Assembly (NCBI GenBank): GCA_965277405.1
Contig: OZ255726.1
Coordinates: 2,052,675 to 2,084,674, forward strand
Length of the DNA: 32,000 nt
From: Gammaproteobacteria bacterium
GTDB lineage: Bacteria > Pseudomonadota > Gammaproteobacteria > G965277405
Direction: 5' to 3'
Positions 3,301-18,545 of this stretch are shown in pieces. The position numbers and the translations under genes are program-made. How positions within the stretch are numbered: position 1 is the first letter of the stretch; each line of letters starts with the position of its first letter. The notes below the pieces were generated by a model that saw only the letters and a list, made by a program, of their open reading frames with translations, did no database searches and had not been told where the DNA came from.

Positions 3301-3523
3301 GCGCATCACAGGCAATGACGAACGCGTGTTGTATAGGGTGCAGAAGTTCAGTTTGGATACGAACACTCTTTTCTTGTGTTTAAACGTGGCGGCAACTTTA
3401 CACCATAAAAATCAACAGCTTAGCATGAACATCAACACCGCTAATTTTGAAAAATACCAACCTATGTTACATAAGGTCAATGCTATAGGTCAAGTTGTGC
3501 GTGTTATTGCCAGTTATCCTTAA
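389..3523 (+). CDS. cas9: Cas9, compact type II-C-size endonuclease (1044 aa)
   Basis: RuvC-I motif is GIDVGSNSIGWGLI at the N-terminus. An arginine-rich bridge helix follows (RRTSRLLRRVLERRARRKRNL). The HNH motif is EIDHILPRSKSLDNSYPNKVICFSQENQKKHDTTPF and the RuvC-III motif is HRHHAVDAVVIAA. cas1, cas2 and a CRISPR array follow directly, and no csn2 or cas4 is present. Confidence 0.95.
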   Translation: MKKILGIDVGSNSIGWGLITASDSGLCSDVVALGSRIFMKAIQDDSTKPKNVQRRTSRLLRRVLERRARRKRNLANYLISQNLLPAALSDNFHQEGLLNSLGDPYELRAKALDDQLKPYELGRVLLHFVARRGFLSSRKSLLGDLVDDPDMQAYLNEVAEESAQGNSQTEKEEKQFLLEISILRNKIILSGKRSLGEYLFALVNSNKRNRKHAFEIIRTDRAMYHEEFTQIWQQQTTFFAHLPNSFIEKVEKIIFYQRPLKLKKNRIGKCSLERNKYRAKQATLQAQQFRYLQDINNLIIYQGNAADRPLTHEEKEKLYKILEQQKKITYAVIKKKLGLPRTITFNLQASKKELQGNETACNIRSVIGEVWDNMEDLEQEKLVEDLLTMKKKSALKRRLINYWGFSVDAAIQLCLLEFTAGHSNLSLKALNKLLPHLYEGNMYSDARIKADYEVTQESKNLDRLGSPPVTCNPIVNKGLHELRRLVNAIIAQYGKPDIIRVEMARDLEQNTKRYKAAEKTRKANETRNEKAATQFASLMGPHHSKKPSLNDKIKYRLWQDQNKLCAYSCQTIAATQVFSLDTEIDHILPRSKSLDNSYPNKVICFSQENQKKHDTTPFMAWGGDTDKWRNMLQAANTWKIKKKLRDNKLQRFKITAEELKEIARGAVTTQLNDTRYIAREALSYLATLGCDTHAVKGHTTAWLRGRLGFNFLLNVDDTKNREDHRHHAVDAVVIAATSRQLYQKIVDAIKQQQQHGYKAPLILDDYAHIRQRLLVLLQHVTVSYIPQYQLTGALHESRGLGFITVKEDNTEITGTVNRTAVDKKLNSKRALKIIDKQVRELILAQLTAHNNNPKEAFIDNNYPLHKDGKTPIKRVRIWKTKISTEKLHATKLAIHDQAGKVFKWCLFGNTHHVEVIKEKATGKIASKFITMYAASCRLKGIGVAQSAAVITNHGQEYEFIMALHINDTVSLRITGNDERVLYRVQKFSLDTNTLFLCLNVAATLHHKNQQLSMNINTANFEKYQPMLHKVNAIGQVVRVIASYP

Positions 3524-3547
3524 ATTTTGCTAGCTGTACAAAAAATA

Positions 3548-4441
3548 ATGATTAAACGCATTATTGATATTGGGCAAGCAAGTTACTTGCATATTCAGCA
3601 TCAACAACTATGCATTGAACAAGCAGGTAAACAAGTAGGGCGTATTCCCATAGAAGATATAGCTATTATTATTATTCACGATACTGCTAGCTACTATACT
3701 CATGCCTTGTTTATCGAGCTATTAAGACATAATGTTGCAGTAGTGTTTTGCGACCGCCATCATCTACCCTTGGGACAACTAGCCCCTATAGCATCTCATA
3801 GTTTGCATACCAAAATCATTCACGAGCAAATACAAGTTAAAAAATCCACTAAAAAACGCCTGTGGAAGCTGATAGTCCAAGCAAAAATTCGTGAACAAGC
3901 CACCACTTTGAGGTTGACAGGCAAGGATGCACAAAAAATAAGCGCCCTTGTTGACCAAGTAAAAAGTGGAGATAGTGCTAATGTAGAAGCCAATGCTGCG
4001 CGTTGCTATTTTAATGAATTATTTGGCAACGCCTTTAGACGCGACAGGCAACAAGCTGGCATAAATGCTCTGTTAAATTATGGGTATAGTGTAGTGCGTG
4101 CAATGTTTGCGAGGGCTATTGTTGCCACGGGCTTACACCCCACTTTTGGCATCCAGCATTCTAACCAATACAATCACCTATGTTTAGCAGATGACTTAAT
4201 GGAGCCATTTCGCCCTTGGGTGGATGAAGCGGTGTATGCGCTGACACATAAAAACGAGGTTATATCCGTTGACAAAGCAAGCAAAACGACGGTACTTAAT
4301 CTGTTGAGTAACAATGTAGTATGGACGAAGAAACACCAACCTTTTATGGTTGTGAGCCATTATTTAGCGGCAAACCTCAAACAAGCTTTAGTAACGAACC
4401 AGCCTGTTTTTAGCATTCCACAAAGAGTTGACAAACAATGA
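3548..4441 (+). CDS. cas1: Cas1 integrase
   Basis: Cas1 motifs are present (NALLNYGYSVVRA; GLHPTFGIQHSNQYNHLCLADDLMEPFRP). The gene lies between cas9 and cas2. The ORF track starts at TTG 3527, but ATG 3548 (MIKRIIDIG) seems the more likely start. Confidence 0.9.
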   Translation: MIKRIIDIGQASYLHIQHQQLCIEQAGKQVGRIPIEDIAIIIIHDTASYYTHALFIELLRHNVAVVFCDRHHLPLGQLAPIASHSLHTKIIHEQIQVKKSTKKRLWKLIVQAKIREQATTLRLTGKDAQKISALVDQVKSGDSANVEANAARCYFNELFGNAFRRDRQQAGINALLNYGYSVVRAMFARAIVATGLHPTFGIQHSNQYNHLCLADDLMEPFRPWVDEAVYALTHKNEVISVDKASKTTVLNLLSNNVVWTKKHQPFMVVSHYLAANLKQALVTNQPVFSIPQRVDKQ

Positions 4442-4797
4442 GCAGCAGGGATTGTACTTACAATAAAGTTATATTTGGCGGACTTAAAACCATGTGGATA
4501 ATTGTGCTATTTGACTTGCCTACAGTAAGTAAAACAGAACGCAGAGCCTATACTGTTTTTCGTAAGCATTTACTCAATGACGGTTTTAATATGATGCAGT
4601 TTTCCGTGTACATGCGTCATTGTGCTAGCGAAGCAAACGCGCAGGTGCACGAGACGCGCATACAAGCAGCCTTACCGAGCTTAGGAGAGGTAAGGGTCAT
4701 AAAAATAACCGATAAGCAATTTGGTAAAATTCAAGTTTTTTATGGTAAAAAACGCAAAAAAACCGAAATTCCGCCATTACAAATGGATCTTTTTTAA
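4438..4797 (+). CDS. cas2: Cas2
   Basis: The start overlaps the cas1 stop in an ATGA arrangement. The core MWIIVLFDLPT...FSVYMRHC is typical of the Cas2 ferredoxin fold with the beta1 Asp. The CRISPR array lies immediately downstream. Confidence 0.9.
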   Translation: MSSRDCTYNKVIFGGLKTMWIIVLFDLPTVSKTERRAYTVFRKHLLNDGFNMMQFSVYMRHCASEANAQVHETRIQAALPSLGEVRVIKITDKQFGKIQVFYGKKRKKTEIPPLQMDLF

Positions 4798-4847
4798 ATG
4801 CCACTTAGGCATACAACCCTTACCAACCAAGTAGTTTCCCACTTTGT

Positions 4848-6126
4848 ACTTTAACCGACTACAGTTTAACCACAATTCACAACAATCCGCACGACCATCT
4901 GCGAGACAACCATACTTTAACCGACTACAGTTTAACCACAATTCACAACTCTCATTGTTCAAACGGCAGGGCATTGTTAACTTTAACCGACTACAGTTTA
5001 ACCACAATTCACAACAAAGAGAGTTAATGAATAGCTACATGGAAGACTTTAACCGACTACAGTTTAACCACAATTCACAACCGGTCACGTTGTCGTGACG
5101 GCAATGTATTTACTTTAACCGACTACAGTTTAACCACAATTCACAACGACGAATGATGATACTCGCTACTGTACCAACTTTAACCGACTACAGTTTAACC
5201 ACAATTCACAACACCTAGGACTGTTGCGATTTAGGTAATCAACTTTAACCGACTACAGTTTAACCACAATTCACAACTGGTTTCGGCACGTTAAAAAAAT
5301 AGCAGACACTTTAACCGACTACAGTTTAACCACAATTCACAACCGAAAGCTACGGACGACGAAATAAGCTTGGACTTTAACCGACTACAGTTTAACCACA
5401 ATTCACAACACTCCGAATGCAATCATCAATACCGCATTTACTTTAACCGACTACAGTTTAACCACAATTCACAACAGAAATCGGCTAAATCCGACTAAAT
5501 CGTCTACTTTAACCGACTACAGTTTAACCACAATTCACAACAACAATATGAGCGTGATAATTGCGTTTCAACTTTAACCGACTACAGTTTAACCATAATT
5601 CACAACAAAAGCTAAAGGGGATATCTGCTTTGAAGGACTTTAACCGACTACAGTTTAACCACAACAATGGCTGTGTTATTGAACCTGCGGCTATACTTTA
5701 ACCGACTACAGTTTAACCACAATTCACAACAACTGACCATAGCTTGTTACGATTTAGCAAACTTTAACCGACTACAGTTTAACCACAATTCACAACAATT
5801 TGACCGCTGTCATAAACTTTAGAATAACATTAACCGACTACAGTTTAACCACAATTCACAACAATTTAACCGCTGTCATAAACTTTAGAATAACTTTAAC
5901 CAACTACAGTTTAACCACAATTCACAACAACCGACCATAGCTTGTTACGATTTAGCAAACTTTAACCGACTACAGTTTAACCACAATTCACAACAATTTA
6001 ACCGCTGTCATAAACTTTAGAATAATTTTAACCGACTACAGTTTAACCACAATTCACAACAAATACAAGTTGCCAAACTTACTGATGCAAACTTTAACCG
6101 ACTACAGTTTAACCACAATTCACAAC
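4848..6126 (-). CRISPR. CRISPR array, 20 repeats of 36 bp and 19 spacers of 29-30 bp; crRNA probably transcribed from the minus strand
   Basis: The plus-strand repeat is ACTTTAACCGACTACAGTTTAACCACAATTCACAAC. Repeat starts are 4848, 4914, 4980, 5046, 5112, 5177, 5242, 5308, 5374, 5440, 5506, 5571, 5637, 5695, 5761, 5827, 5893, 5959, 6025 and 6091. The reverse complement begins GTTGTG, like other type II-C repeats. Orientation is inferred from the strand of the tracrRNA terminator and from G.U-compatible pairing. Confidence 0.95.
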
Positions 6127-6151
6127 AGTTGTGAGAATCGTGATAAAAAGG

Positions 6152-6449
6152 CTGGGGTGTTACCCTCTTGACAAAAATGCTCTAATACAGTGAGTTGGTT
6201 GGCAATTGTTAATGGTAGATGATGGTACGGTGCGAGCCAAAGCATGCCTGCCACGGATGCAACATAGCAAGTGAGGGCAATTACTGCAATCTGCAAGTAT
6301 ATTGAACACAGGGATGGAAAAAAAGCTGCGCTAACGTCGTTGCAGCACTTGATAATACCACCAAGTATTATTTGCGCACTGCGGCTAGTTATCATCAGCG
6401 TTTTTTCTCCGTCTCGCCCATCATGGACTTAATCAGAGATTCCTTGTAG
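6152..6449 (-). mobile_element. MITE-like repeat, near full length, inverted orientation
   Basis: The reverse complement of 6449-6330 is nearly identical to 19987-20110 (gattaagtccatgatgggcgagacggagaaaaaacgctgatgataactag...). The rest is diverged but alignable. The copy begins 25 bp after the last CRISPR repeat. Confidence 0.7.
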
Positions 6450-6685
6450 GGTTATATTATACACTAGTCTTGACCACCCACGGGTGAGCAGATTGGTGTT
6501 ATGCAGGATAAACGCGGTCAAAGTCCAGCAATCGACAGCAACACCCAAATTGACAAAACCAAGCCCTAAAATTAGAAATATCAGCCATTTAGTGGCAATT
6601 TATCATTCACTAGCTAGTATTGACCCTGACGATATGACTTTTTTTTATGTCATTCTTATACGTTAAAGCGATTGTCGGGGGGTCA

Positions 6686-8155
6686 ATGCGTCGCACTATA
6701 TGTTTCGTCCATAAGGGGCAGATAAGAGAGTTGGTACCGAGAGAACCAACACAAACTGTCCTGAATTTTCTGCGGTATGAAGACGCCTTGACTGGTACGA
6801 AGGAAGGCTGCGCTGAAGGAGATTGTGGTGCATGCACCGTTGTCCTTGGCGACCTTGAGCTAGACGGCTCAATTCGCTATCTGGCCGTCAATTCCTGCAT
6901 TCAGTTTTTACCAATGCTGGATGGTCGAGAGTTGATTACCGCAGAAGACCTGAAATTAGCAGACGGCTCTTTGCATCCAATCCAACAAGCAATGGTTGAC
7001 CACAACGCCACCCAATGCGGCTTCTGCACCCCAGGATTTGTCATGTCTCTGTTTGCTGAAAAGCACGGCAGCAATTCTGCTGATACTTGGGACGTCAATA
7101 ATGTACTTGCGGGGAATCTGTGCCGCTGTACTGGGTATGGGACCATTATTGCGGCTGCAAAGAGCGCAGCTGCAAGCCACGCTGACGATCAATTTGATGG
7201 GACAATGGAGACCAGAGCCGGCATGCTGAAATCTCTTCAGCAAAATCCCCCCCTTGCTCTGCAGGCAAAAGGTAACCGCTATTTCGCTCCCACATCAATA
7301 GCTGAGCTTGCCGATTTGCTGGCAACCTATCCGCAGGCCATCCTCCTTGCTGGTGCGACGGATATCGGGCTGTGGGTGACTAAGCAGCATCGTCAACTCG
7401 ATACACTCATTTATCTCGGGCGGATACAAACACTCAAAGCAATGGTACTGGATGAAAACTCGATCTCGATTGGCGCGGGCGTCACGTATGCAGAAGCTTG
7501 GAAAACACTGGGGTCAGAGTATGCGGATCTGCATGAACTAATCCGCCGCATTGGCTCTACACAGATCCGCAATTCCGCAACCATTTGCGGTAATATTGCC
7601 AACGGATCGCCGATCGGAGATATGCCGCCAGCGCTGATCGCGCTTGACGCCACGGTGACCCTAACGAGCAAACGAGGTAGTCGTAGCATCGCGCTTGAAA
7701 AATTCTTCATCGGCTATAATACGCAAGATTTGCAGCCGGGGGAGTTTGTAGAAAAAGTATCTATACCAAGACCATCGGCTACTAAGCAGTTCAGGGCCTA
7801 CAAAATATCTAAAAGGTTTGACCAGGATATTTCAGCTTTGTGTGCCGCTTTTAATCTCACATTGGCAGGGATAACGGTCAAAGACATCCGCATATGTTAT
7901 GGGGGCATGGCTGGTACGCCCTTGCGCGCTCAACAAACCGAAGCTGCCGTCATCGGCAAAGACTGGGTGCGCGCAACCATTGATACGGCCTTGCAGGCTA
8001 TGAGCAAAGATTATCAACCGCTCAGCGATATGCGGGCGAGTGATCGGTACCGGATGGCGGTGGCACAAAATCTGTTGTTGAAATTTTTTATTGAGACAAC
8101 AGATCGGCACACGGCAACCCGTCTGCTCGGCGATATGGAGCGCGCCCATGCGTAA
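6686..8155 (+). CDS. xdhA: Xanthine dehydrogenase small subunit (2Fe-2S plus FAD-binding)
   Basis: 2Fe-2S motifs are present (CAEGDCGACTV, CGFCTPG, CRCTGY), as is the FAD-binding LLAGATDIGLWVTK. The start is probably ATG 6686, preceded by GGGGGG. The track ORF starts at 6647. Confidence 0.9.
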   Translation: MRRTICFVHKGQIRELVPREPTQTVLNFLRYEDALTGTKEGCAEGDCGACTVVLGDLELDGSIRYLAVNSCIQFLPMLDGRELITAEDLKLADGSLHPIQQAMVDHNATQCGFCTPGFVMSLFAEKHGSNSADTWDVNNVLAGNLCRCTGYGTIIAAAKSAAASHADDQFDGTMETRAGMLKSLQQNPPLALQAKGNRYFAPTSIAELADLLATYPQAILLAGATDIGLWVTKQHRQLDTLIYLGRIQTLKAMVLDENSISIGAGVTYAEAWKTLGSEYADLHELIRRIGSTQIRNSATICGNIANGSPIGDMPPALIALDATVTLTSKRGSRSIALEKFFIGYNTQDLQPGEFVEKVSIPRPSATKQFRAYKISKRFDQDISALCAAFNLTLAGITVKDIRICYGGMAGTPLRAQQTEAAVIGKDWVRATIDTALQAMSKDYQPLSDMRASDRYRMAVAQNLLLKFFIETTDRHTATRLLGDMERAHA

Positions 8156-10499
8156 TTCTGTTCCTAGCAAAACCGAAATTCGCGGTAAGATTGGCAGGCA
8201 GCTGATGCACGACAGCGCTGTCAAGCAGGTTGCAGGCGCAGCGCACTATATTGATGATGTTGCGGAACCTAAGGATCTGCTGCATCTGTATGTCGCCAAG
8301 AGCACGATGGCCCACGCAACAATCAGTAAACTCGACGTGTCGCAAGCCAGCGCTGCCGCAGGTGTCGCCGTTGTCTTGACTGCAGCAGATGTGCCTGGCG
8401 TCAACGATGCCTCTCCCGTGGCAGGGGACGACCCAGTTTTTGTAGAAGACCTAGTTGAATATGTCGGACAGTCGTTGTTTGTCGTTGCCGCCGATAGCCT
8501 GGAGCAGGCGCGAGCGGCCGCGGCTCTTGCTGTTGTGGAATATGAACAACTCCCTACTGTGCTGACAGTTGAGCAAGCACTCGCAGCGGGTTCGTTCGTG
8601 CTGCCAAGCCGTCACCTTGTCAAGGGAGACCCTGCATCAGCCCTCAAAACGGCCGTAAATAGATTGCAAGGTCGCGTTGAAATTGGTGGTCAGGACCATT
8701 TTTATCTTGAAGGTCATATCTCCGTGGCAACCCCGCGCGAGGATGGGGATGTCCACGTTCATTGTTCGACGCAACACCCGACTGAAGTTCAGCATAATGT
8801 CGCAAAGTTTCTTGATGTGGCGGACCATTCGGTCTGCGTTGAAAACAGGCGAATGGGCGGTGGGTTTGGCGGCAAGGAAACACAAGGGGCGTGGTTTGCC
8901 GCGATGGCAGCATTAGTGGCAACAACAACCGGGCGCCCAGCAAAACTAAGGGTGGACCGGGATGATGATATGATTATGACTGGGAAACGCCATGACTTTG
9001 TGATCGAGTATGATGTCGGGTTTGACGATGACGGCAAGATTGACGGCGTGGAATTTATGTTTGCATCGCGCTGCGGCCGCTCTGCGGACCTATCTGCTGC
9101 GATCAACGACCGAGCCATCTTCCATGCGGATAACTGCTATTTTATGGAAAATATCTCGATTATTTCGCACCGTTGCAAGACCCATACGGTCTCCAATACC
9201 GCCTTCAGGGGTTTTGGCGGCCCGCAGGGGATGATCGGCGTTGAACGGATGATTGACGAGATTGCACACGCGCTTGGCAAAGATCCTCTCGACATCCGCA
9301 AAATCAACCTATACGGCAAAACGGAGCGCAATGTCACTCCGTATCATATGGAGATTAAAGATAATATTATAGCGGAAATTATCGCCGATCTTGAGAAAAA
9401 ATCAGCCTATGCGGCGCGCGTCAAGGCTGTCCGTGAGTTTAATGCCAGCAGCGCGTATCTGAAAAAGGGCATTGCGTTGACACCTGTCAAATTCGGTATA
9501 TCTTTTACCACGACATTCCTCAACCAAGCTGGCGCACTCATTCATGTTTACACTGATGGCAGCGTCATGCTCAACCATGGCGGCACCGAGATGGGTCAGG
9601 GTCTGTTCATCAAGGTGGCCCAGGTTGTTGCCGAAGAATTGCAGATTGATATCGAGAGGGTAAAAATCACAGCAACGACAACCGACAAGGTGCCAAACAC
9701 GTCAGCAACAGCCGCGTCCTCTGGATCTGATATGAACGGCAAGGCGGCACAAATCGCCGCCAGAACAATTAAAGACCGATTAACCAAGTTTGCAGCAGAG
9801 CATTATCAGGTTGCTGCAAACGCTATTCGCTTTCTGCCCAATCGCATCCAAATTGGCAATAAGGTTGTTACATTTGCCGCACTGGTCGAGCAAGCCTACC
9901 TAAACCGAATTTCTCTTTCCGCGACTGGATATTATAAAACACCGAAAATCCACTATGACGCGGAAAACTATTCTGGACGCCCGTTTTACTATTTCGCATA
10001 CGGAGCCGCTGTCGCGGAAGCCATGATTGATACGTTGACTGGTGAGAGCAAAATCATGCGGGTTGATATCATCCATGATACTGGCAAAAGCCTTAATCCA
10101 AGCATTGATCTTGGTCAGATTGAAGGGGGCTTCATCCAGGGAATGGGATGGCTGACAACCGAGGAACTGGTGTTTGACGAGCGGGGTAACCTGATGACGC
10201 ATGCCCCGTCTACATATAAGATCCCAACGTGCAGCGACCGTCCCGCTATTTTCAATATGGAAATCTATGCTGGTGGCGAGAATGTGGAAAACAGCATTCA
10301 CAAGTCAAAAGCAGTTGGCGAACCGCCGTTAATGCTGGCGATTTCTGTCTTTAATGCGCTAACCGACGCCGTCAGAAGCGTTGCTGACTACCGCGAATTT
10401 CCTGCACTGGATGCCGCTGCGACACCAGAGCGAATTCTGCACGCCGTGCAGGATTTGCAGGAAAGGATGCGCAATAGCCAAAGGACTCCACCCGCATGA
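8148..10499 (+). CDS. xdhB: Xanthine dehydrogenase molybdopterin-binding large subunit
   Basis: The GGGFGGKE motif and family-typical length are present. ATG 8148 overlaps the xdhA stop (8153-8155), suggesting translational coupling. The track ORF starts at 8091. Confidence 0.9.
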   Translation: MRNSVPSKTEIRGKIGRQLMHDSAVKQVAGAAHYIDDVAEPKDLLHLYVAKSTMAHATISKLDVSQASAAAGVAVVLTAADVPGVNDASPVAGDDPVFVEDLVEYVGQSLFVVAADSLEQARAAAALAVVEYEQLPTVLTVEQALAAGSFVLPSRHLVKGDPASALKTAVNRLQGRVEIGGQDHFYLEGHISVATPREDGDVHVHCSTQHPTEVQHNVAKFLDVADHSVCVENRRMGGGFGGKETQGAWFAAMAALVATTTGRPAKLRVDRDDDMIMTGKRHDFVIEYDVGFDDDGKIDGVEFMFASRCGRSADLSAAINDRAIFHADNCYFMENISIISHRCKTHTVSNTAFRGFGGPQGMIGVERMIDEIAHALGKDPLDIRKINLYGKTERNVTPYHMEIKDNIIAEIIADLEKKSAYAARVKAVREFNASSAYLKKGIALTPVKFGISFTTTFLNQAGALIHVYTDGSVMLNHGGTEMGQGLFIKVAQVVAEELQIDIERVKITATTTDKVPNTSATAASSGSDMNGKAAQIAARTIKDRLTKFAAEHYQVAANAIRFLPNRIQIGNKVVTFAALVEQAYLNRISLSATGYYKTPKIHYDAENYSGRPFYYFAYGAAVAEAMIDTLTGESKIMRVDIIHDTGKSLNPSIDLGQIEGGFIQGMGWLTTEELVFDERGNLMTHAPSTYKIPTCSDRPAIFNMEIYAGGENVENSIHKSKAVGEPPLMLAISVFNALTDAVRSVADYREFPALDAAATPERILHAVQDLQERMRNSQRTPPA

Positions 10500-11596
10500 C
10501 GGATTGGGCAGATATCCTCAGCAAACACATGGAAAACGGCTGCCACTCCATCTTGTTGACGATTGCCGCCGTCCGCGGTTCTACCCCACGGGAAACTGGG
10601 ACGCGGATGTTGGTCACGATGCAGCAGACGTTCGGAACAATCGGCGGCGGAATGCTCGAATATCGGGCAATTCAACACGCAACTGGGCTGTTGCAGTCTG
10701 CTACGACTACCCCAGCAATTTTAAAAATCCTGCTCGGTCCAGAGCAGGGGCAATGTTGCGGTGGGCTGGTTGAACTGCTCGTCGCGCCTCTTGGTCAGCA
10801 AGATCTTGTGTGGATGAAAAATATTGTGGCGGCGAACAAACACTCACGGTGTGCTGTTCTGCATACCCGCTGGCAGGGCGGACAGATCCAGCGCCAGGTA
10901 TTCTGTAACCTTGATGACATTCCTGCCAATGAAAATTTGCTCAGACAACTATCGAGGATGGTTAGCAGCGATGGCACACCCCTTGTTGCAACCACCCCTG
11001 CGGGCGCAGATTTTACAGTTATAGAAGCCTTGAGCACTAACAAATTTCACCTTGTGCTGTTTGGTGCAGGTCATGTCGGCAAAGCCATCGTCCAGACTCT
11101 GGCAGGCTATCCCTGCTCGATCGCATGGGTCGATGAGCGCGCCGATATGTTCCCAGCAACCCTCCCTGCGATTGTAGAAAAATGGGTTACACCCTATCCT
11201 GCACGGTTGGTTGGTGAAACCCCACCAAATAGTTATTTCCTCGTGATGACCCATAGCCATCAACTGGATATGGAGATATGTGCGGCCATATTGAAGCGCG
11301 GTGCTTTTGGATATCTTGGGTTGATTGGCTCGAAAACGAAGCGGAATAAATTTGTAAAACGGTTAAAATTCAGAGGGTTTTCTTCAACGCGTATCAGTAA
11401 ACTCGTTTGCCCAATCGGGGTTGCTGCCATCAGCGGCAAGCATCCAAATGAAATTGCCATCAGTGTCGCAGCGCAGTTGCTGCAGCACCAGGAAATGCGT
11501 CAGTTGGCATCGAGAGATCTCGCAGTGTTTACCAGAGTTGAGGAAAAACGTAAGAAACTGACTCAGGTTACTGCAAAGTTTGAGACTAGTTTATAG
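10496..11596 (+). CDS. xdhC: XdhC/CoxI-family xanthine dehydrogenase maturation protein
   Basis: The start overlaps the xdhB stop in an ATGA arrangement. The N-terminal domain is XdhC-like and a Rossmann-like LVLFGAGHVGKA is present. The gene sits directly after xdhAB. Confidence 0.8.
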   Translation: MTDWADILSKHMENGCHSILLTIAAVRGSTPRETGTRMLVTMQQTFGTIGGGMLEYRAIQHATGLLQSATTTPAILKILLGPEQGQCCGGLVELLVAPLGQQDLVWMKNIVAANKHSRCAVLHTRWQGGQIQRQVFCNLDDIPANENLLRQLSRMVSSDGTPLVATTPAGADFTVIEALSTNKFHLVLFGAGHVGKAIVQTLAGYPCSIAWVDERADMFPATLPAIVEKWVTPYPARLVGETPPNSYFLVMTHSHQLDMEICAAILKRGAFGYLGLIGSKTKRNKFVKRLKFRGFSSTRISKLVCPIGVAAISGKHPNEIAISVAAQLLQHQEMRQLASRDLAVFTRVEEKRKKLTQVTAKFETSL

Positions 11597-11638
11597 GAGC
11601 ATAGCTAATTCTGGATTAAACAACAGAGAGACCGATAT

Positions 11639-13183
11639 ATGGAGACACAAGTTGCGCCGACACCCCGCCTAGAACTGAAGGGTATTACCAAAGCCTATCC
11701 TGGCGTGTTGGCTAATGATAGCATCGACCTGAAAATTTTCCCTGGAGAAATCCATGCTCTTTTTGGCGAAAATGGAGCCGGAAAAAGTACGCTCGTCAAA
11801 ATCATATATGGGGTTTTGCAAGCCGATTCTGGCATAATGGAATGGGATGGTAGGCCATTGCAAATTGCCAATCCCCACGCTGCGAGGAAAATCGGCATTG
11901 GTATGATTTTTCAGCATTTCTCACTCTTTGAGGCAATGACTGTTGTCGAGAATATCACGCTGGGGCTGCCATACCGCGAGAATATGGCTGAACTCGCGCA
12001 ACGCATCCGCGAAATTTCAGAAAATTACGGTCTCCTCCTCAACCCGTACCGATATGTCCATACGCTCTCTGTAGGCGAAAAACAGCGGATAGAAATTGTC
12101 CGTTGTCTGCTGCAAAACCCTAAATTGCTCATCATGGATGAGCCAACATCAGTTCTCACGCCGCTAGAAGCTGACAAGATGTTTACAACGCTACGCTGTC
12201 TGGCAACTGAAGGGGTTGCCATACTCTATATCAGCCATAAACTTTACGAAATACAGACCCTTTGCCATAAGGCAACAATCCTGCGGGGCGGCAAGTACAT
12301 TGCAGAATGTGACCCAAGCGTAGAGACCGCTAAAAACCTCGCCGAGATGATGACTGGCACCAACTTTACTGCAGCAAAGCACAGCGATAATAGCACGCGT
12401 GATCTGGTCTGCCTCAAGGTCAACAACCTCTCTTTGGATAGTACTGGTCAGTTTGGCACCGACCTCAATTTGATCAATTTCGAAGTAAGAAGCGGAGAAA
12501 TTTTCGGAATTGCCGGGGTTGCTGGCAATGGGCAAGTTGAGCTGCTAGCAGCACTTAGCGGCGAAGTAACGTGCAAAAATGCGCACGACATTCTGCTTGA
12601 ACAACAACCGATTGCCCATACAGGTCCCAATCAACGCAGGGAACTTGGTGTTGCATTTGTCCCCGAAGATCGGTTGGAGCATGGGTCTGTGGCTGACATG
12701 AGTTTGGTGGATAACGCCTTCCTCAGCGCCTATGGGCAGAAAAAACTTGTATGCATTGGTTGGATTAAAAGGCGCAAGACGATGAAATATGCAGATGAGA
12801 TTGTCGCCAAGTTCGATGTACGAACCACAGGGATTACCCACATGGCCAGCAGCCTGTCAGGCGGAAATCTGCAAAAATTTATCGTCGGCCGCGAAATGCT
12901 GAAAAAACCGAAATTGATCATTATTGCGCATCCTACGTGGGGGGTTGATGCATGTGCCGCCGCGGCTATCCAGCAGGCAATAATCGACCTCGCCGCAACA
13001 GGTACAGCTGTTTTGGTGGTTAGTCAGGACCTAGACGAACTATTTGCCATCAGTCATCGCATCGCGGTCATAGCAGCGGGCCGACTGTCCATCAGCCGCG
13101 CTGTTGATGAAATAGCAGTCGAGGATATCGGCGAGTTGATGGGCGGCGCCGCGGCAAAAATGGAATGTAACAATGTTGCTTAA
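11639..13183 (+). CDS. ABC transporter ATP-binding protein with two fused NBDs (sugar/nucleoside CUT2 type)
   Basis: Walker A is GENGAGKST, the signature LSVGEKQR and Walker [10 protein letters not shown] second, degenerate NBD is present (GVAGNGQ, LSGGNLQK). Two permease genes follow. Confidence 0.9.
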   Translation: METQVAPTPRLELKGITKAYPGVLANDSIDLKIFPGEIHALFGENGAGKSTLVKIIYGVLQADSGIMEWDGRPLQIANPHAARKIGIGMIFQHFSLFEAMTVVENITLGLPYRENMAELAQRIREISENYGLLLNPYRYVHTLSVGEKQRIEIVRCLLQNPKLLIMDEPTSVLTPLEADKMFTTLRCLATEGVAILYISHKLYEIQTLCHKATILRGGKYIAECDPSVETAKNLAEMMTGTNFTAAKHSDNSTRDLVCLKVNNLSLDSTGQFGTDLNLINFEVRSGEIFGIAGVAGNGQVELLAALSGEVTCKNAHDILLEQQPIAHTGPNQRRELGVAFVPEDRLEHGSVADMSLVDNAFLSAYGQKKLVCIGWIKRRKTMKYADEIVAKFDVRTTGITHMASSLSGGNLQKFIVGREMLKKPKLIIIAHPTWGVDACAAAAIQQAIIDLAATGTAVLVVSQDLDELFAISHRIAVIAAGRLSISRAVDEIAVEDIGELMGGAAAKMECNNVA

Positions 13184-14252
13184 GATCGAAAAACGCCTTG
13201 AGCCTTCGCGGTCAATGGTGTATGTAACTCCAGTTCTTGCCATATTTTTCACTATTGTCACGGCGATGGTGCTCTTCACGTTTATGGGAGTCGACCCTAT
13301 TGATGCTCTCATAAATTTTTTTATTGTCCCGATCAACAACGAGTATGGTGTCACCGAGGTTCTCGTTAAAGCAACACCGCTAATCCTTTGTGCCATCGGT
13401 CTTTCTGTGGGATTTCGGGCGAATATCTGGAATATTGGTGCAGAAGGGCAGCTAACGCTCGGTGCTATTTTTGGCGGGGGTGTTTTTGTCTATTTTTACG
13501 ATGTTGACAGCGGGTTTCTGCTGGTGGTCATGATTATCATGGGTGCCGTCGGCGGTGCACTCTGGGCTGCCATTCCGGCTTTCCTTAAAACCCGGTTCAA
13601 TGCCAATGAAATCCTCACCAGTCTGATGCTGGTGTATGTTGCTCTGCTGATCTTGAGTTTTCTGGTCCACGGACCGTGGAGCGATCCAGACGGGTATAAT
13701 TACCCTGAATCAAGAATGTTCAGCGCCAGCGCGACCATGCCGATTCTGTGGCAGGGAACGCGCTTGCATCTGGGAACGATCCTAGCATTATTCGCCGTCT
13801 TCACCACTTGGATAATGCTGGCGAAAACGCTGATTGGTTTTCAGATCAAAGTCATCGGCTCAAGCGCAAAAGCATGTAAGTATGCTGGTTTCAGCCAAAA
13901 AAAAATTACTTGGTTCTGCCTGCTTTTTGGTGGAGGTATGGCTGGAATCGCGGGGATTTCCGAAGTCGCAGGTCCAGTTGGTCAACTGGTGCCCATCATC
14001 TCCCCAGGGTATGGATTTACAGCCATTATTGTTGCATTTCTCGGGCGGCTTCACCCAGTCGGTATTATTTTCGCTGGGCTACTAATGGCGCTGACCTATC
14101 TTGGCGGTGAAACGGCGCAGCTCAATCTAGGACTGCCAACTGCCGTGACTGGTGTCTTTCAGGGAATGGTTCTCTTCTACCTGCTGGGCTGCGATGTGTT
14201 GGTCAATTACCGTTTTCGTCCGCTTGGTTTTGCACGGGCTGTTCATGAGTGA
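13173..14252 (+). CDS. ABC transporter permease
   Basis: The protein is a hydrophobic multi-span ORF. It overlaps the upstream ATPase gene by 11 nt and its stop overlaps the next permease start. Confidence 0.85.
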   Translation: MLLKIEKRLEPSRSMVYVTPVLAIFFTIVTAMVLFTFMGVDPIDALINFFIVPINNEYGVTEVLVKATPLILCAIGLSVGFRANIWNIGAEGQLTLGAIFGGGVFVYFYDVDSGFLLVVMIIMGAVGGALWAAIPAFLKTRFNANEILTSLMLVYVALLILSFLVHGPWSDPDGYNYPESRMFSASATMPILWQGTRLHLGTILALFAVFTTWIMLAKTLIGFQIKVIGSSAKACKYAGFSQKKITWFCLLFGGGMAGIAGISEVAGPVGQLVPIISPGYGFTAIIVAFLGRLHPVGIIFAGLLMALTYLGGETAQLNLGLPTAVTGVFQGMVLFYLLGCDVLVNYRFRPLGFARAVHE

Positions 14253-15174
14253 TTTTAGCTTGTTAGTCCCAGTAATTCTAACTGTTATCACCGCGGCAAC
14301 ACCGCTGGTTTTGGCCAGCATTGGCGAATTGGTGACAGAAAAATCTGGCGTTCTTAACCTAGGCATAGAAGGCATGATGATTGTCGGAGCTGTAGCCGCA
14401 TTTGTGACTGCAAAAGTGACCAGCAGCTATATTCTTGCTGTCCTTGTCGCCGCGCTGGCGGGTACTTGCATGGCGTTTATATTTGGTATCCTCACCCTTT
14501 CCTTGATGGCTAATCAGGTAGTAACTGGGCTGGCGCTGACGTTGTTCGGGACAGGTCTATCCTCGCTGGTTGGGCAGGACTTTGTCGGGGAGCCAATCGC
14601 TGCGATTGTCAAACTCGATATCAATGGCTTAACGACTCTGCCGATTGTCGGCCCCATCCTGTTTGGTCAGGATGCCTTGGTGTATTTGTCATTTGTGATG
14701 GTGGTGCTGGTTATCTGGTTCCTTAATACAACCAAAGCAGGCCTGATTCTTCGCGCTGTGGGTGATTCGCATGATGCTGCACATTTAATCGGATATTCGG
14801 TTATCGGCATCCGTTATCTTGCCGTTATGTTTGGTGGGGCCATGGCTGGAATTGGCGGCGCCTACCTCTCCTTGGCCTATACCCCGATGTGGGCGGAAAA
14901 CATGACAGCAGGTCGCGGTTGGATTGCTCTCGCCTTGATTGTCTTTGCAACTTGGAAACCTGGGTTGGTGCTGTTCGGTGCTTATATGTTTGGTGGTATT
15001 ACCCTGTTGCAATTGCATGCGCAGGCCGCAGGATTTGGCTTGCCGTCGCAAATGTTATCGATGTTGCCTTATCTGGCGACAGTGATTATCCTAGTTTTGA
15101 TTTCTAAGGACGAGTCACGTATCCGCAGACACGCTCCAGCTTGTATTGGGAAGATATTTCACCCTGCAGCGTAA
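14245..15174 (+). CDS. ABC transporter permease (second subunit)
   Basis: The protein is a hydrophobic multi-span ORF. The probable start, ATG 14245 (MSDFSLLVPV...), overlaps the upstream stop at 14250-14252. The track ORF starts at 14152. Confidence 0.85.
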   Translation: MSDFSLLVPVILTVITAATPLVLASIGELVTEKSGVLNLGIEGMMIVGAVAAFVTAKVTSSYILAVLVAALAGTCMAFIFGILTLSLMANQVVTGLALTLFGTGLSSLVGQDFVGEPIAAIVKLDINGLTTLPIVGPILFGQDALVYLSFVMVVLVIWFLNTTKAGLILRAVGDSHDAAHLIGYSVIGIRYLAVMFGGAMAGIGGAYLSLAYTPMWAENMTAGRGWIALALIVFATWKPGLVLFGAYMFGGITLLQLHAQAAGFGLPSQMLSMLPYLATVIILVLISKDESRIRRHAPACIGKIFHPAA

Positions 15175-15251
15175 TGCCCAAATTTAGGGAATTATATACC
15201 ATTTTAGCCAAGCACCACTTAACATATAGTTATTAAATGGTTTAAATACTA

Positions 15252-15279
15252 TTGACAAATAAATTTATTCCCCTACAAT
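15252..15279 (+). promoter_or_regulatory. Near-consensus sigma70 promoter inside the element, upstream of its three-gene operon
   Basis: TTGACA (15252-15257), 16 nt, then TACAAT (15274-15279). A GGAAGGGGG Shine-Dalgarno-like sequence follows before ATG 15303. Confidence 0.5.
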
Positions 15280-15302
15280 TCTAGCCATAGGAAGGGGGTG
15301 TC

Positions 15303-15938
15303 ATGAACAAGCACAACAAACCTGAAATTATGAGCGCGTGGGACTTTATGGCGAGGTTCCCAACAGACGAACTGGCACGCGACCATATCGAACGCATGCG
15401 TTGGGGCAATGAACCTTATTGTCCACACTGCTGGAGCATATCGGTCAGTCGAATTAAGAACGAAAAACCCCAGCCGTTTCGCTGCAAGGATTGCCGAAAA
15501 CATTTTTCTGTCACGACGGGTACAGTTTTCCATTCAACGAACCTATCACCGCGTAAGTGTCTTTATGCAATCTATCTCATGGCTATTGCTAAAAAGTCGA
15601 TTTCAAGCTGCCAGATGGCGCGGGAGCTTGGTTGCACACAAAAGACAGCATGGTATCTCGCACAACGCATTCGGGAAACCTGGCTGAATAAGTCCAGCAC
15701 TGGCGATCTGATGACCGGCGAAATAGAAATAGATGAAACCTATATCGACGGCATCGAAAAGAATAAGCACGCCAATAAAAAACTTAGGGCCGGTCGTGGG
15801 CCGGTCGGAAAACAAGCTGTTATCGGGGTGCGTGAGCGTAAATCCGGTCGTATTACGGCACGTCCGATTGCCCACATCAACCAAACCATACGTAACGCCG
15901 ACGGTGTTCTTGGGTACAAGAACCTGACGGTTAATTGA
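15303..15938 (+). CDS. IS1595-family transposase-derived protein, C-terminally decayed (Zn-ribbon plus HTH plus first catalytic D only)
   Basis: The N-terminus has a CPHC...CKDC zinc ribbon and FHSTNLSPRKCLYAIYLMA...SSCQMARELGCTQKTAWYLAQRIRE. EIDETYIDGIEKNKHANKKL and GRGPVGKQAVIGVRER match the family pattern. The ORF ends after ~195 homologous residues, so the second D and the E of the DDE triad are absent. Confidence 0.7.
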   Translation: MNKHNKPEIMSAWDFMARFPTDELARDHIERMRWGNEPYCPHCWSISVSRIKNEKPQPFRCKDCRKHFSVTTGTVFHSTNLSPRKCLYAIYLMAIAKKSISSCQMARELGCTQKTAWYLAQRIRETWLNKSSTGDLMTGEIEIDETYIDGIEKNKHANKKLRAGRGPVGKQAVIGVRERKSGRITARPIAHINQTIRNADGVLGYKNLTVN

Positions 15939-15949
15939 AAGGATAAACA

Positions 15950-16705
15950 ATGCCGCGCAAAGCCGAACAGCTTATTGAACCCATTGATACGACAATGGAC
16001 ACGCTGACAGCAACTGTCTTTTCAAACCAGAGAACTGTGCAGGCCCCGCCGGTTTCTTTACCCAAAGCTTTAACGCCGAACAGCCGCATCAAGATGGACG
16101 GGATTACGTTTCTGTCCCTATTGTCGGAGGCGGTAATCCCAGTCGCGTTTTTCGATCCGCAATATCGTGGCGTTCTCGAAAAGCTATCTTATGGGAACGA
16201 GGGGAAGGGGCGCGGAAAACGACGCTGCGCCTTGGAACAAATGCCCGAGGATGTAATCGCTCAATTCGTGCGCGGTATTGATCGCACCCTGATTCCATCT
16301 GGGCATTTGTTTTTATGGGTGGATAAGTTTCACCTCTGCCAAGGTATTCATGCGTGGCTGGACGGAACCTCGCTTGATATCGTTGATCTGGTTACTTGGG
16401 ATAAGGGAACCTTTGGTATGGGTTATCGGACACGCCGCCGCGCCGAGTACTGCATCATCCTTCAAAAACAGCCGCGCAAGGCAAAAGGTGTTTGGACAAT
16501 CCATAATATCCCAGATGTGTACCGCGAAAAGGCCGGACGGAAAGAACACCCGCATATCAAACCTATAGATTTACAAGGCGAACTTATGGCCGCAGTGAGC
16601 CGCGAAGGTGATTTCGTGATTGACCCAGCCGCAGGATCATTTTCGGTTATGCAAGCCACGCTAAATTACCGCCGCACTTTCCTTGGCTGTGATTTGAACG
16701 GATAA
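15950..16705 (+). CDS. Beta-class amino DNA methyltransferase (N6-A or N4-C, PF01555-like motif order)
   Basis: A motif IV-like FFDPQYRG lies in the N-terminal half. HPHIKPIDLQGELM is followed by a motif I-like DFVIDPAAGSFSV near the C-terminus. The IV-then-I order is that of the beta class. Confidence 0.8.
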   Translation: MPRKAEQLIEPIDTTMDTLTATVFSNQRTVQAPPVSLPKALTPNSRIKMDGITFLSLLSEAVIPVAFFDPQYRGVLEKLSYGNEGKGRGKRRCALEQMPEDVIAQFVRGIDRTLIPSGHLFLWVDKFHLCQGIHAWLDGTSLDIVDLVTWDKGTFGMGYRTRRRAEYCIILQKQPRKAKGVWTIHNIPDVYREKAGRKEHPHIKPIDLQGELMAAVSREGDFVIDPAAGSFSVMQATLNYRRTFLGCDLNG

Positions 16706-16710
16706 CGATC

Positions 16711-17382
16711 ATGGCCCGCATTCGGAATGCCCGTCCAAAGAATGTTTCTGGCTCTTACGAGCGGATATTCGACAATGCCGAACTCGGCGCACTCATTAGT
16801 AAAGTTCAATCCGCCGTCATCACATCGGGAACGGAGTTAGAGAAAAGGATCTCTGATATGGTCACCAATATAGACTGTCTGGATTCCTTTCTCAAACAAG
16901 AAATTATGCCGGATGGTGTGTGGCTCGCACGCAAGCGGCAAATTAAACGGAGCGATACCCTAGACTTTGCGGGCGCAGAGCCGGATTTCATGATTTTCAA
17001 ACGCCGACAAGGTGTCCAGTCCTGCCATATCGTTGAGCTAAAAGACGGACACGTATTTGATACCAAGAAAGCCAGTGCGGAACGTCAAGCTATGCATAAT
17101 TTTATCTCGCACAATGCCCAACACATCCAATATCGATTTCAAGCACATTTTTGTGCGTTCAATCAGGATGATCAGAATATGATATGGGTAGGTTTCAAGA
17201 AACGAATAGTTTTAAACGAAACAATGACAGGGCGCAAGTTCTGCGAGCTTTTAGAGCTAGATTATGACGCTATAATCGAGGCGAGGAAGGCTGACGGACC
17301 TGATAATGTCAATTTCTTCCTGTCAGAACTGGTCAAAATAGAGGGCATCCGTCCGCATCTGTTGGAATTGCTCAATGGCTAA
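16711..17382 (+). CDS. Putative type II restriction endonuclease (PD-(D/E)xK-like core)
   Basis: EPDFMIF...x15...HIVELKDG fits the D-Xn-E-X-K pattern. The gene starts 5 nt after the methyltransferase stop on the same strand. Its stop codon lies inside the right TIR. Confidence 0.55.
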   Translation: MARIRNARPKNVSGSYERIFDNAELGALISKVQSAVITSGTELEKRISDMVTNIDCLDSFLKQEIMPDGVWLARKRQIKRSDTLDFAGAEPDFMIFKRRQGVQSCHIVELKDGHVFDTKKASAERQAMHNFISHNAQHIQYRFQAHFCAFNQDDQNMIWVGFKKRIVLNETMTGRKFCELLELDYDAIIEARKADGPDNVNFFLSELVKIEGIRPHLLELLNG

Positions 17383-17462
17383 AATGGTATATAGTTCCCC
17401 AAATTTATAATAGTTTTTAACAAAGAGAGAATGAAATGAAATTTTTAACACAGGAGAATGAA

Positions 17463-18545
17463 ATGAAATTTAAGTCGTTGGTATCCCTTGGTCGCGCATT
17501 AGCCGTCGTCGCTGCAGTGCTTGCAGTTGGCACTGTATCTGCCGCAGACAAGGTCGGGTTTGTCTACGTTGGCCCAGTGGGGGATTATGGGTGGTCATAC
17601 CGCCATGACATAGGCCGTCAGTCTGTAGCAAAGGCTTTCGGCGATAAAGTCAAAACAACATTCGTCGAAGACGTCAAGGATGGTGCAGATGCAGAACGCG
17701 TCATCCGCCAGATGGCTGCACATGGTCATAAACTTATCTTCGTAACGTCATTTGGTTTCATGAACCCGATGATGAAAGTTGCCAAACTATTCCCGCAGGT
17801 AAAATTCGAGCATGTAACAGGCTATAAGCGCGCCAATAATGTTAGCACTTATTCTGGGCGTAAGTATGAAGGGCGATATGTAGTCGGAAAAATTGCCGGG
17901 ATGATGACTAAATCAAACATCATCGGCTATGTCGCAGCTTTCCCGATCCCAGAAGTTATTCGCGGCATCAACGCAGTTGCGCTTGCCGCTAGCAGCGTCA
18001 ATCCAGACATCCAAGTTAAAGTTATTTTGGTCAATTCGTGGTATGACCCAGGTAAAGAAGGGGATGCTGCTAAAGCCCTCATTGACCAAGGCGCAGATAT
18101 CATTATGCAGCATACCGATAGCCCGGTTGCCTTGCAGGTTGCGCAAAGCCGCGGCGTTTGGGGGGTTGGGCAGTCTTCAGATATGAAAGTTTTTGCACCA
18201 GAATGGCAACTGACGGCGATCATCGACAACTGGGACGCATATTATATCGAGCGCACCCAAGCAGCCCTCGACGGTTCGTGGAAATCCCAAGATGTATGGG
18301 GTGGTTTGCAATCCAAAATGATCGAACTTGCAAAATACAATGACGCCATTCCGGCTGATGTTGTCAACATCGCCGAAGCAACAAAAGCGGCGATTATCGA
18401 CGGCTCTTTGAAACCTTTTGCTGGCCCGTTTAACAAACAAGATGGTACGGAAGCCGTGGCGGCTGGTGAAGAACTGGACGATGACGCTCTGCTTGGCATG
18501 GACTGGTATGTAGAAGGTGTTCAAGGAAAATTACCGAATAGCTGA
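17463..18545 (+). CDS. BMP-family (PnrA-like) ABC transporter substrate-binding protein
   Basis: A signal peptide is present (MKFKSLVSLGRALAVVAAVLAVGTVSA|ADK), and FVYVGPVGDYGWSY is typical of the BMP/nucleoside-binding family. An alternative in-frame start at 17436 was created by a tandem duplication. Confidence 0.85.
   Translation: MKFKSLVSLGRALAVVAAVLAVGTVSAADKVGFVYVGPVGDYGWSYRHDIGRQSVAKAFGDKVKTTFVEDVKDGADAERVIRQMAAHGHKLIFVTSFGFMNPMMKVAKLFPQVKFEHVTGYKRANNVSTYSGRKYEGRYVVGKIAGMMTKSNIIGYVAAFPIPEVIRGINAVALAASSVNPDIQVKVILVNSWYDPGKEGDAAKALIDQGADIIMQHTDSPVALQVAQSRGVWGVGQSSDMKVFAPEWQLTAIIDNWDAYYIERTQAALDGSWKSQDVWGGLQSKMIELAKYNDAIPADVVNIAEATKAAIIDGSLKPFAGPFNKQDGTEAVAAGEELDDDALLGMDWYVEGVQGKLPNS

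Follow-up and report, generated by a model that had tools for sequence, protein, structure and literature searches.

Within a 32,000-nucleotide stretch of DNA from a Gammaproteobacteria bacterium (assembly GCA_965277405.1, contig OZ255726.1, positions 2,052,675 to 2,084,674 of the forward strand; hereafter the window), we examined an element that is bounded by inverted repeats, lies between two genes of an ATP-binding cassette (ABC) importer and carries three genes on one strand. The first open reading frame (ORF1) encodes a shortened transposase of the insertion sequence (IS) family IS1595, the second (ORF2) a DNA methyltransferase (M) and the third (ORF3) a predicted restriction endonuclease (R). 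The window was our view of the source genome and holds a single copy of the element. Its features are collected in Table 1.

Ends and genes of the element

A repeat search of the window returned a 31-nt inverted repeat pair (15180-15210 and 17376-17406; 94% complementary), the 23-nt core of which, GGGAAYTATATACCATTTTAGCC, occurs at these two sites only (0 expected; 100 shuffles). An earlier reading of the same DNA, made from the letters alone (the sequence-only reading), had placed inverted repeats here and a mobile segment at 15180-17406. Both the repeats and the segment proved to be real, and comparison with relatives corrected the boundaries to 15187-17399, a true span of 2,213 bp that opens with GGGAAT at 15187 and closes with TTCCC at 17399. 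The palindromic AAATTT at the outer edge, previously read as the outermost part of the repeat and as a possible 6-bp duplication, is instead contained in a perfect 8-bp target-site duplication (TSD; CAAATTTA), and is therefore flanking target DNA and not part of the inverted repeat. The element thus has two features of the IS1595 family, namely short imperfect terminal inverted repeats at both ends (IRL on the left and IRR on the right; 23/24 positions matching) and an 8-bp TSD on each side. Its ends, GGGAATTAT and GGGAACTAT, agree with what we take to be the consensus of the ISNwi1-like subgroup, ggnnatTAT.

Table 1. Features of the element and of the importer genes on either side of it (window coordinates).
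Feature	Position	Strand	Evidence or remark
Second permease gene of the ABC importer (host gene, outside the element)	14152-15174	+	Pfam BPD_transp_2
Left 8-bp TSD, CAAATTTA	15179-15186	.	Identical to 17400-17407; directly outside IRL
Left terminal inverted repeat (IRL), GGGAATTATATACCATTTTAGCCA	15187-15210	+	23/24 match to IRR
Putative sigma-70-like promoter, TTGACA-16-TACAAT	15252-15279	+	Consensus scan, 11/12; upstream of the three-gene operon
ORF1, 211 aa, IS1595-family transposase with 100 codons deleted in frame	15303-15938	+	Pfam, NCBIfam, alignments
Deletion junction in the transposase gene, ATTG microhomology	15867-15870	+	Alignment A2 and junction sequences
ORF2, 251 aa, beta-class N6/N4 DNA methyltransferase	15950-16705	+	Pfam N6_N4_Mtase 1.8e-10; PADLOC MTase_II PDLC03271 7.8e-82
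ORF3, 223 aa, predicted Type II restriction endonuclease, PD-(D/E)xK (D92, E109, K111)	16711-17382	+	PADLOC REase_II PDLC03487 7.4e-41, full length
Right terminal inverted repeat (IRR)	17376-17399	-	Overlaps last codons of ORF3
Right 8-bp TSD, CAAATTTA	17400-17407	.	Perfect match to left copy
Gene for BMP/PnrA-family substrate-binding protein (Bmp; host gene, outside the element)	17436-18545	+	Pfam Bmp 1.9e-50

ORF1 matched the Pfam family PF12760 (Zn_ribbon_IS1595), positions 3-60 only of the 153 positions of PF12762 (DDE_Tnp_IS1595) and positions 2-116 of the 215 in NCBIfam transpos_IS1595. It retains the four cysteines of the Zn-ribbon, the helix-turn-helix (HTH), the first catalytic aspartate (DETY) and a C-terminal tail. 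Profiles and alignments therefore confirmed the earlier description of an IS1595 transposase that keeps its Zn-ribbon, HTH and first D and has lost the rest of the DDE core. The nearest relatives of ORF1 are full-length enzymes of 311 aa and, among ~15 billion proteins, the 211-aa form is a singleton cluster found on one contig; the other short transposases of the family are C-terminal truncations of various kinds. Among the matches, the closest transposase with a name was that of ISRhba1 (57% identity), and no named ISfinder or TnCentral entry for this element was found among them.

ORF2 shows the motif order motif IV (DPQY), HPHIKP, motif I (DPAAGSFS), and so contains both the motif IV and the S-adenosylmethionine-binding motif I of a Type II restriction-modification (R-M) methyltransferase; its previous assignment to the beta class was upheld by the Pfam and PADLOC matches. 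ORF3, whose stop codon lies within IRR, has no family in Pfam or NCBIfam. In the PADLOC scan it matched the REase_II profile and, more weakly, the Shedu nuclease domain. The residues E90-P91-D92 and E109-L110-K111 were invariant in an alignment of ORF3 with 19 homologues (alignment A3; 20 sequences), and in an AlphaFold2 model (predicted local distance difference test, 89; predicted template modelling score, 0.82) D92 opens one strand of the core while E109 and K111 close the next, as in PD-(D/E)xK enzymes. The 223-aa protein, described earlier as nuclease-like from its EPD...ELK motif, is thus placed in a PD-(D/E)xK restriction-enzyme family by the PADLOC match, the invariant motif and the model, and a separate gene with a nuclease core stands beside M. 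This family comprises 469 members, of which the best 120 are 61-79% identical to ORF3 and full length.

We then compared conservation across the three genes. At columns conserved in at least 95% of homologues, ORF2 showed no deviation (0/92; 56 M homologues) and neither did ORF3 (0/54; 51 R homologues), so that jointly none of 146 conserved columns deviates. For the transposase gene (tnp), 33 of 96 conserved columns are missing from the stump and 3 of the remaining 63 deviate (G44W, Y59F and G149D), with G44W falling in the CPHCG motif of the Zn-ribbon. Between the window and L003, an intact relative described below, synonymous sites were saturated (pS, the proportion of differing synonymous sites, >0.8), leaving only the nonsynonymous proportion (pN) comparable; this was 0.13 in tnp, M and R alike.

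Intact relatives and the transposase deletion

A scan of one genome per species yielded 80 loci, denoted here by L numbers, which were surveyed by tblastn and by a search for inverted repeats and TSDs. Neighbourhoods of ORF3 homologues contained an IS1595 transposase of 310-311 aa with both Pfam domains, a 251-aa M and a 223-aa R, spaced as in the window. An uninterrupted 311-aa transposase (Tnp) with a complete D-D-E triad, which the window copy does not have, was found with M and R between the same ends in L003, L010, L015, L031 and L040, and a tnp gene that was frameshifted or carried a nested insertion in L002, L038 and L039. The inverted-repeat core of the window bounds the Tnp-M-R unit in all of these loci (L002, L003, L010, L015, L031 and L038-40) and in the Ruegeria copies described below, and a weaker equivalent of the window promoter occupies the same position in L002 and L003.

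The sequence-only reading had proposed a search for the same ends around the same trio elsewhere, and this arrangement was found in many loci, each with its own 8-bp TSD. Perfect duplications flank the elements in L002 (TTAATTTG) and in L003 (ATAATTTA), the latter interrupting a DDE_Tnp_1_4 transposase gene, and Tnp-M-R units with a perfect 8-bp TSD were likewise present in L010, L014, L015, L031, L038, L039, L040 and L079. In all, apart from the window copy, perfect 8-bp TSDs were recorded at 14 complete insertions outside Ruegeria (13 distinct sites). In L002, a second IS1595-family element (6690-7727) begins directly after the right TSD, the two elements abutting end to end; its transposase is 49% identical to that of L003, and it has the same terminus, GGGAATTATATA.

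Two metagenome-assembled genomes (MAGs) held the element in several copies. A Longimicrobiales MAG contained four copies (L085-88; 2,533 bp each) with four different TSDs, and a Ruegeria sp. MAG (NZ_CBDAQX01) contained at least 18 (L017-L030, L057, L060, L062 and L073). The Ruegeria element is 2,749 bp long, reaches ~300 bp past R and has a perfect 26-bp inverted repeat; in copy-to-copy alignment its copies were 99.85-100% identical over shared sequence. A perfect 8-bp AT-rich TSD was seen in 8 of the 14 Ruegeria copies inspected, and some copies had no matching TSD. Five Ruegeria copies are interrupted, four of them (L017, L022, L027 and L057) by a second repeat of ~1.4 kb and one (L025) by another insert. 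On their right-hand sides, L018 (ATTCATAT) and L030 (ATATGAAT) have flanks that are reverse complements of each other, a sign that Ruegeria copies have rearranged with one another.

Empty sites were reconstructed or found for three insertions. When the element and one copy of the TSD were removed in silico from L010 and L015, an intact ORF was restored (262 aa or 292 aa). For the window copy the empty site was recovered by synteny: among 80 related metagenomic loci (57-81% identity), 72 have the Bmp gene next in line after the permease gene. The permease and Bmp alignments in these loci end within 350 nt of each other, and the closest relatives have a spacer of ~45 nt. The proposed insertion into an ABC importer operon, with the second permease gene on one side and the BMP-family gene on the other, was borne out by this check.

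The targets in L010 (2661-5931) and in L015 and L012 (~2923-6194) were themselves homologues of M: the element lies inside a resident homologue of its own M gene, at two different points across these loci and with no second R gene nearby, and it is this M ORF that in-silico excision rebuilt in L010 and L015. The resident gene may be an orphan 'vaccinating' methylase, or the hit may simply reflect an AT-rich target.

Evidence of transposition, in the form of multiple sites and of empty sites, was thus obtained for the element family. Because the units have their own TSDs, occur in multicopy genomes and leave recognizable empty sites, we conclude that IR-tnp-M-R-IR (IR, inverted repeat) transposes as a unit, and it is therefore a transporter IS (tIS) by definition. 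The features of this class, one transposase, inverted repeats and a TSD together with unrelated passengers, are all found in the family: M and R lie between the inverted repeats and move with tnp in relatives.

Aligned at the DNA level with L002 and L003 (alignment A2), the window element was collinear throughout and showed one gap, of exactly 300 bp, in tnp (columns 693-993), where L003 has the sequence. This in-frame deletion takes ~100 residues, including YTDGH with the second D and HTNGIESFW with the E, and leaves the C-terminal tail in place (AHINQTIRNADGVLGYKNLTVN in the window; AHIDQSLRNARGVLGYKALTAN in L003). The spacer between tnp and M is 11 nt, the same as in relatives, and the 300-bp loss falls wholly inside tnp, away from its junction with M. 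Having lost the second D and the E, the window copy is a defective derivative and not an autonomous member of the family; from the missing catalytic residues we infer that its transposase is dead, and the deviating columns suggest that the stump is drifting. The equal pN of the three genes indicates that the deletion is recent relative to the divergence from L003. The idea that a modification and restriction pair had replaced the catalytic half of the transposase did not hold: relatives carry full-length tnp together with M and R, and, because the parent had all three genes and the internal deletion came later, M and R did not replace that half.

Other copies have decayed in different ways. 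The tnp gene is interrupted by another IS in L022, L027 and L039, and is reduced to fragments of varied kinds in L001/L009, L011, L036, L049, L074 and L078. The C-terminus alone of the transposase is kept in L001, L009, L011 and L074, with M and R intact. In a Gammaproteobacteria MAG (L069, 4208-5692) we found a 1,485-bp IRL-M-R-IRR unit with a perfect TSD, AAAATTTA, and no tnp gene, a cargo-only derivative that was presumably mobilised in trans. M-R pairs with only an IRR remnant occur in L013, L032 and L037, and R or M is itself interrupted or frameshifted in L049, L057, L067, L071, L072, L080 and L084. In a Thermohalobaculum sp. MAG (L043, 4715-5686), IRL and the promoter region are followed by 38 tnp codons and then by a jump to the last codons of M; M is deleted, and an intact R gene and IRR are kept. 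R without M in L043 should be lethal unless another M protects the DNA or R is silent.

Host MAG titles for the family included Alphaproteobacteria, Gammaproteobacteria, Poribacteria, Latescibacterota, Acidimicrobiales, Bdellovibrionales, Phototrophicaceae, Spirochaetota and Longimicrobiales. Several record titles (L009-L088) are linked to sponges (Poribacteria, Poriferihabitaceae, 'Spongia_Bin9' and RHO/CAR/SB sponge bins), and these titles suggest spread within sponge-associated communities. Phage records and viral contigs yielded no relative of ORF3, and plasmid records contained only distant Campylobacter homologues of R (35% identity), without a transposase.

History of the window copy and alternative explanations

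Together, these data make it very likely that 15187-17399 is a tIS of the IS1595 family with a Type II R-M operon as its cargo, rendered non-autonomous by a defective transposase. As seen in relatives, the intact element is ~2.5 kb long and runs from IRL and the promoter through genes for a 311-aa Tnp, a 251-aa M and a 223-aa R to IRR, with gaps of 5-12 nt between genes and the R stop codon in IRR. Its transposase would bind the inverted repeats, move the whole unit and duplicate 8 bp of AT-rich target. One copy entered the ~45-nt spacer between the permease and binding-protein genes of a nucleoside-type ABC importer, duplicating CAAATTTA, and a later 300-bp in-frame deletion at the ATTG microhomology removed the second D and the E, so that the copy would no longer be self-mobile. 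As its ends are intact, a full-length relative could mobilise it in trans. The three genes would be co-transcribed from the IRL-proximal promoter, with M shielding host DNA and R cutting unmodified incoming DNA and penalising loss of the cassette. The window copy would then represent one stage in a series that leads from a full tIS through decay of tnp, loss of tnp and loss of the inverted repeats to a resident R-M pair. In the sequence-only reading, a passenger-carrying IS, or mobile R-M unit, frozen by transposase decay had been one of two possibilities, and it is the one that the Tnp-M-R units of relatives support.

Several observations weigh against this explanation. Many M-R members, for example those of a Poribacteria clade, show no trace of Tnp or inverted repeats, and the Ruegeria Tnp is 44% identical to that of L003 whereas the Ruegeria M is 77% identical to that of the window, a contrast that hints at module exchange; a free R-M family captured more than once would also account for such cases. 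For R itself, a sequence search of the PDB gave no meaningful match to a solved structure, and Foldseek comparison of the model with the PDB was weak (best E = 7e-3), although the top neighbours (Nt.BspD6I, FokI, Mus81 and cap-snatching endonucleases) all have the PD-(D/E)xK fold. On the supporting side, loci with and without Tnp were interspersed to the deepest branches when R was placed in a neighbour-joining tree, which fits an old association with recurrent loss of the transposase.

An alternative is that the whole cassette, including the R-M genes, is an inert fossil whose ORFs are intact because its decay is recent. The tnp gene is already dead by this account, and the broken R or M genes of the seven loci listed above show that the cargo can decay too. 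The window copy nevertheless keeps all 146 conserved positions of M and R while its tnp stump appears to drift, and it keeps a strong promoter-like site. Loss of M is lethal while R remains active, which would favour joint maintenance of the two genes. We therefore consider a fully inert cassette unlikely, and M and R, judged by their conservation, are probably still under selection and active as an ordinary R-M pair.

The family might also be read as a co-adapted alliance between transposase and R-M pair, with the window stump acting as an InsA-like repressor of M and R. The R-M genes would then be transcribed from the tnp promoter under the control of transposase bound at IRL, and post-segregational killing would act to stabilise every insertion. 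We regard this as slightly less probable again than an inert cassette. If true, transposition would amplify an R-M system to at least 18 copies per genome and spread it across phyla in sponge-associated communities.

Improbable, too, in our judgement, is a narrower version in which the Zn-ribbon/HTH stump has been co-opted as a controller that regulates the R-M operon or the element ends by binding IRL or the promoter, the second possibility raised in the sequence-only reading. IS1595 is related to IS1, and the N-terminal product of IS1, InsA, represses the IRL promoter. Consistent with such a role, ORF1 is in frame and intact, retains the Zn-ribbon cysteines, HTH and C-terminal tail, comes first in the operon behind the only strong promoter-like site and matches M and R in its pN relative to L003. 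However, a deletion is in frame by chance one time in three, and the form it produced here is a singleton whose nearest relatives are full-length enzymes. Other decayed copies keep different pieces of the transposase (the C-terminus, or 38 aa in L043) or, as in L069 and many more, none of it, and M and R are intact in those copies except L043, where M is deleted. ORF1 also deviates at 3 of 63 conserved positions, including G44W, against 0 of 146 for M and R, which points to relaxed constraint, and this together with its singleton status argues against co-option. In addition, ORF1 matches transposase families only, without similarity to known controller proteins (C-proteins) or to HTH_3-type domains, so that the operon does not resemble a C-protein-controlled R-M system, and no small ORF that could encode an extra controller was found between the genes in the ORF list of the cassette. 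The resemblance to InsA is one of architecture only, InsA also being a Zn-finger and HTH N-terminal product without a catalytic domain; InsA, however, is programmed and conserved in every IS1, whereas the 211-aa protein stems from a unique deletion.

A one-off composite, formed by local replacement or by chance when an R-M pair inserted into or recombined with a resident IS1595 copy and took the place of the catalytic half of its transposase, is what the window alone would suggest from a truncated tnp followed by M and R, but it is refuted by alignment A2, as the 3' end of tnp and the 11-nt spacer are kept and the loss is internal to tnp, while tnp-M-R recurs with identical spacing and the same inverted repeats at many independent sites with their own TSDs, and we accord it next to no probability.

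Returning to the defective tIS and its surroundings, the near-consensus promoter noted earlier was found in our scan, and no terminator-like site was found near the end of the element in the window. Without an internal terminator, transcription from the element promoter probably continues into the downstream Bmp gene. An exact 18-nt direct repeat, GAGAATGAAATGAAATTT, with 27-nt spacing (17427-17471) duplicates the ribosome-binding site and start codon of Bmp and is present in single copy in the closest relative (L090); it may reflect a change that tuned translation initiation after the insertion, or chance. Genes for xanthine dehydrogenase subunits and XdhC (6647-11596) precede the ABC ATPase, the two permeases and Bmp, and the region around the insertion (6647-18545) looks like a purine-salvage cluster. 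Further upstream (389-6150) lies a Type II CRISPR-Cas locus with Cas1 and a 1,044-aa Cas9 (HNH_4, Cas9_a and RuvC_III). Its array comprises 20 copies of a 36-bp repeat, ACTTTAACCGACTACAGTTTAACCACAATTCACAAC, separated by 30-nt spacers, several of them duplicated, and no spacer of this array matched the element or any of the fetched loci.

Relation to known mobile units

Transporter ISs are a defined class within the IS1595 family, with published examples in tISCpe8 and MTnSag1 (lincomycin resistance and mobilisation) and in ISNha5 (regulator cargo); the related MTnSag1 is reported to pass through a circular intermediate. The element described here shares with these a single IS1595-type DDE transposase with a Zn-ribbon, short inverted repeats, an 8-bp duplication and internal passengers. 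It differs from them in that a complete Type II R-M cargo lies behind tnp, the stop codon of R falls in IRR and the transposase of the window copy is defective. In the open-access literature we found no IS1595 tIS with a complete R-M cargo, of which Siguier et al. 2009 or ISfinder may hold a description, and no account of the multicopy state or host range of the Tnp-M-R family.

R-M units resembling transposons have been reported by Furuta, Abe and Kobayashi 2010 (PMC2853133), who described a Type II R-M system of X. oryzae with 65-bp inverted repeats and an 8-bp TSD, and a Type IIG unit of N. gonorrhoeae with 26-bp inverted repeats, an 8-bp TSD and a degenerate transposase-like gene (COG3677). 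The same paper cites Siguier et al. 2009, the IS1595 paper, for R-M genes flanked by ISs. Common to those units and ours are R-M genes within imperfect inverted repeats and 8-bp repeats, empty sites in relatives and, in one of them, an apparently dead transposase, and non-autonomous mobilisation is discussed there as well. Whereas those are single units without a demonstrated autonomous parent, the present family includes full-length parents, a genome with at least 18 copies and a graded series of decay.

Two further comparisons concern parts of the element. M-R pairs on Campylobacter conjugative plasmids (PDLC03271 and PDLC03487 families) are homologous to ORF2 and ORF3, adjacent and in the same order, M then R; unlike the unit studied here, those pairs, the R of which (35% identity) is annotated as a restriction endonuclease, have neither transposase nor inverted repeats. 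Miniature inverted-repeat transposable elements (MITEs) and mobile insertion cassettes likewise combine intact inverted repeats and a TSD with the absence of a working transposase and are potentially mobilisable in trans, but the window copy retains coding sequence for two thirds of the transposase together with the full cargo operon.

The three-gene architecture had been put forward as one not matching any described system. Given the known tIS class and the transposon-like R-M units already reported (PMC2853133), the window element is a neat instance of a type already known and does not amount to a new system, and its locus is that of an otherwise ordinary, decaying mobile element.

What the family adds is of broader interest. 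R-M systems have long been argued to act as selfish mobile elements, and few clear cases exist of R-M genes that have a dedicated transposase of their own and demonstrably move with it; the Tnp-M-R family, whose intact copies move as units in many, seemingly marine, bacteria, is one. It offers autonomous parents, perfect TSDs at about two dozen independent sites, empty sites reconstructed exactly in silico, one genome with 4 copies and another with at least 18, and a decay series. For annotation, a family of 469 proteins like the 223-aa ORF3, mostly labelled 'hypothetical', can now be flagged as Type II restriction enzymes. The window copy, placed in the spacer of an importer operon, shows a route by which defence genes can be added to an operon that is not destroyed in the process.

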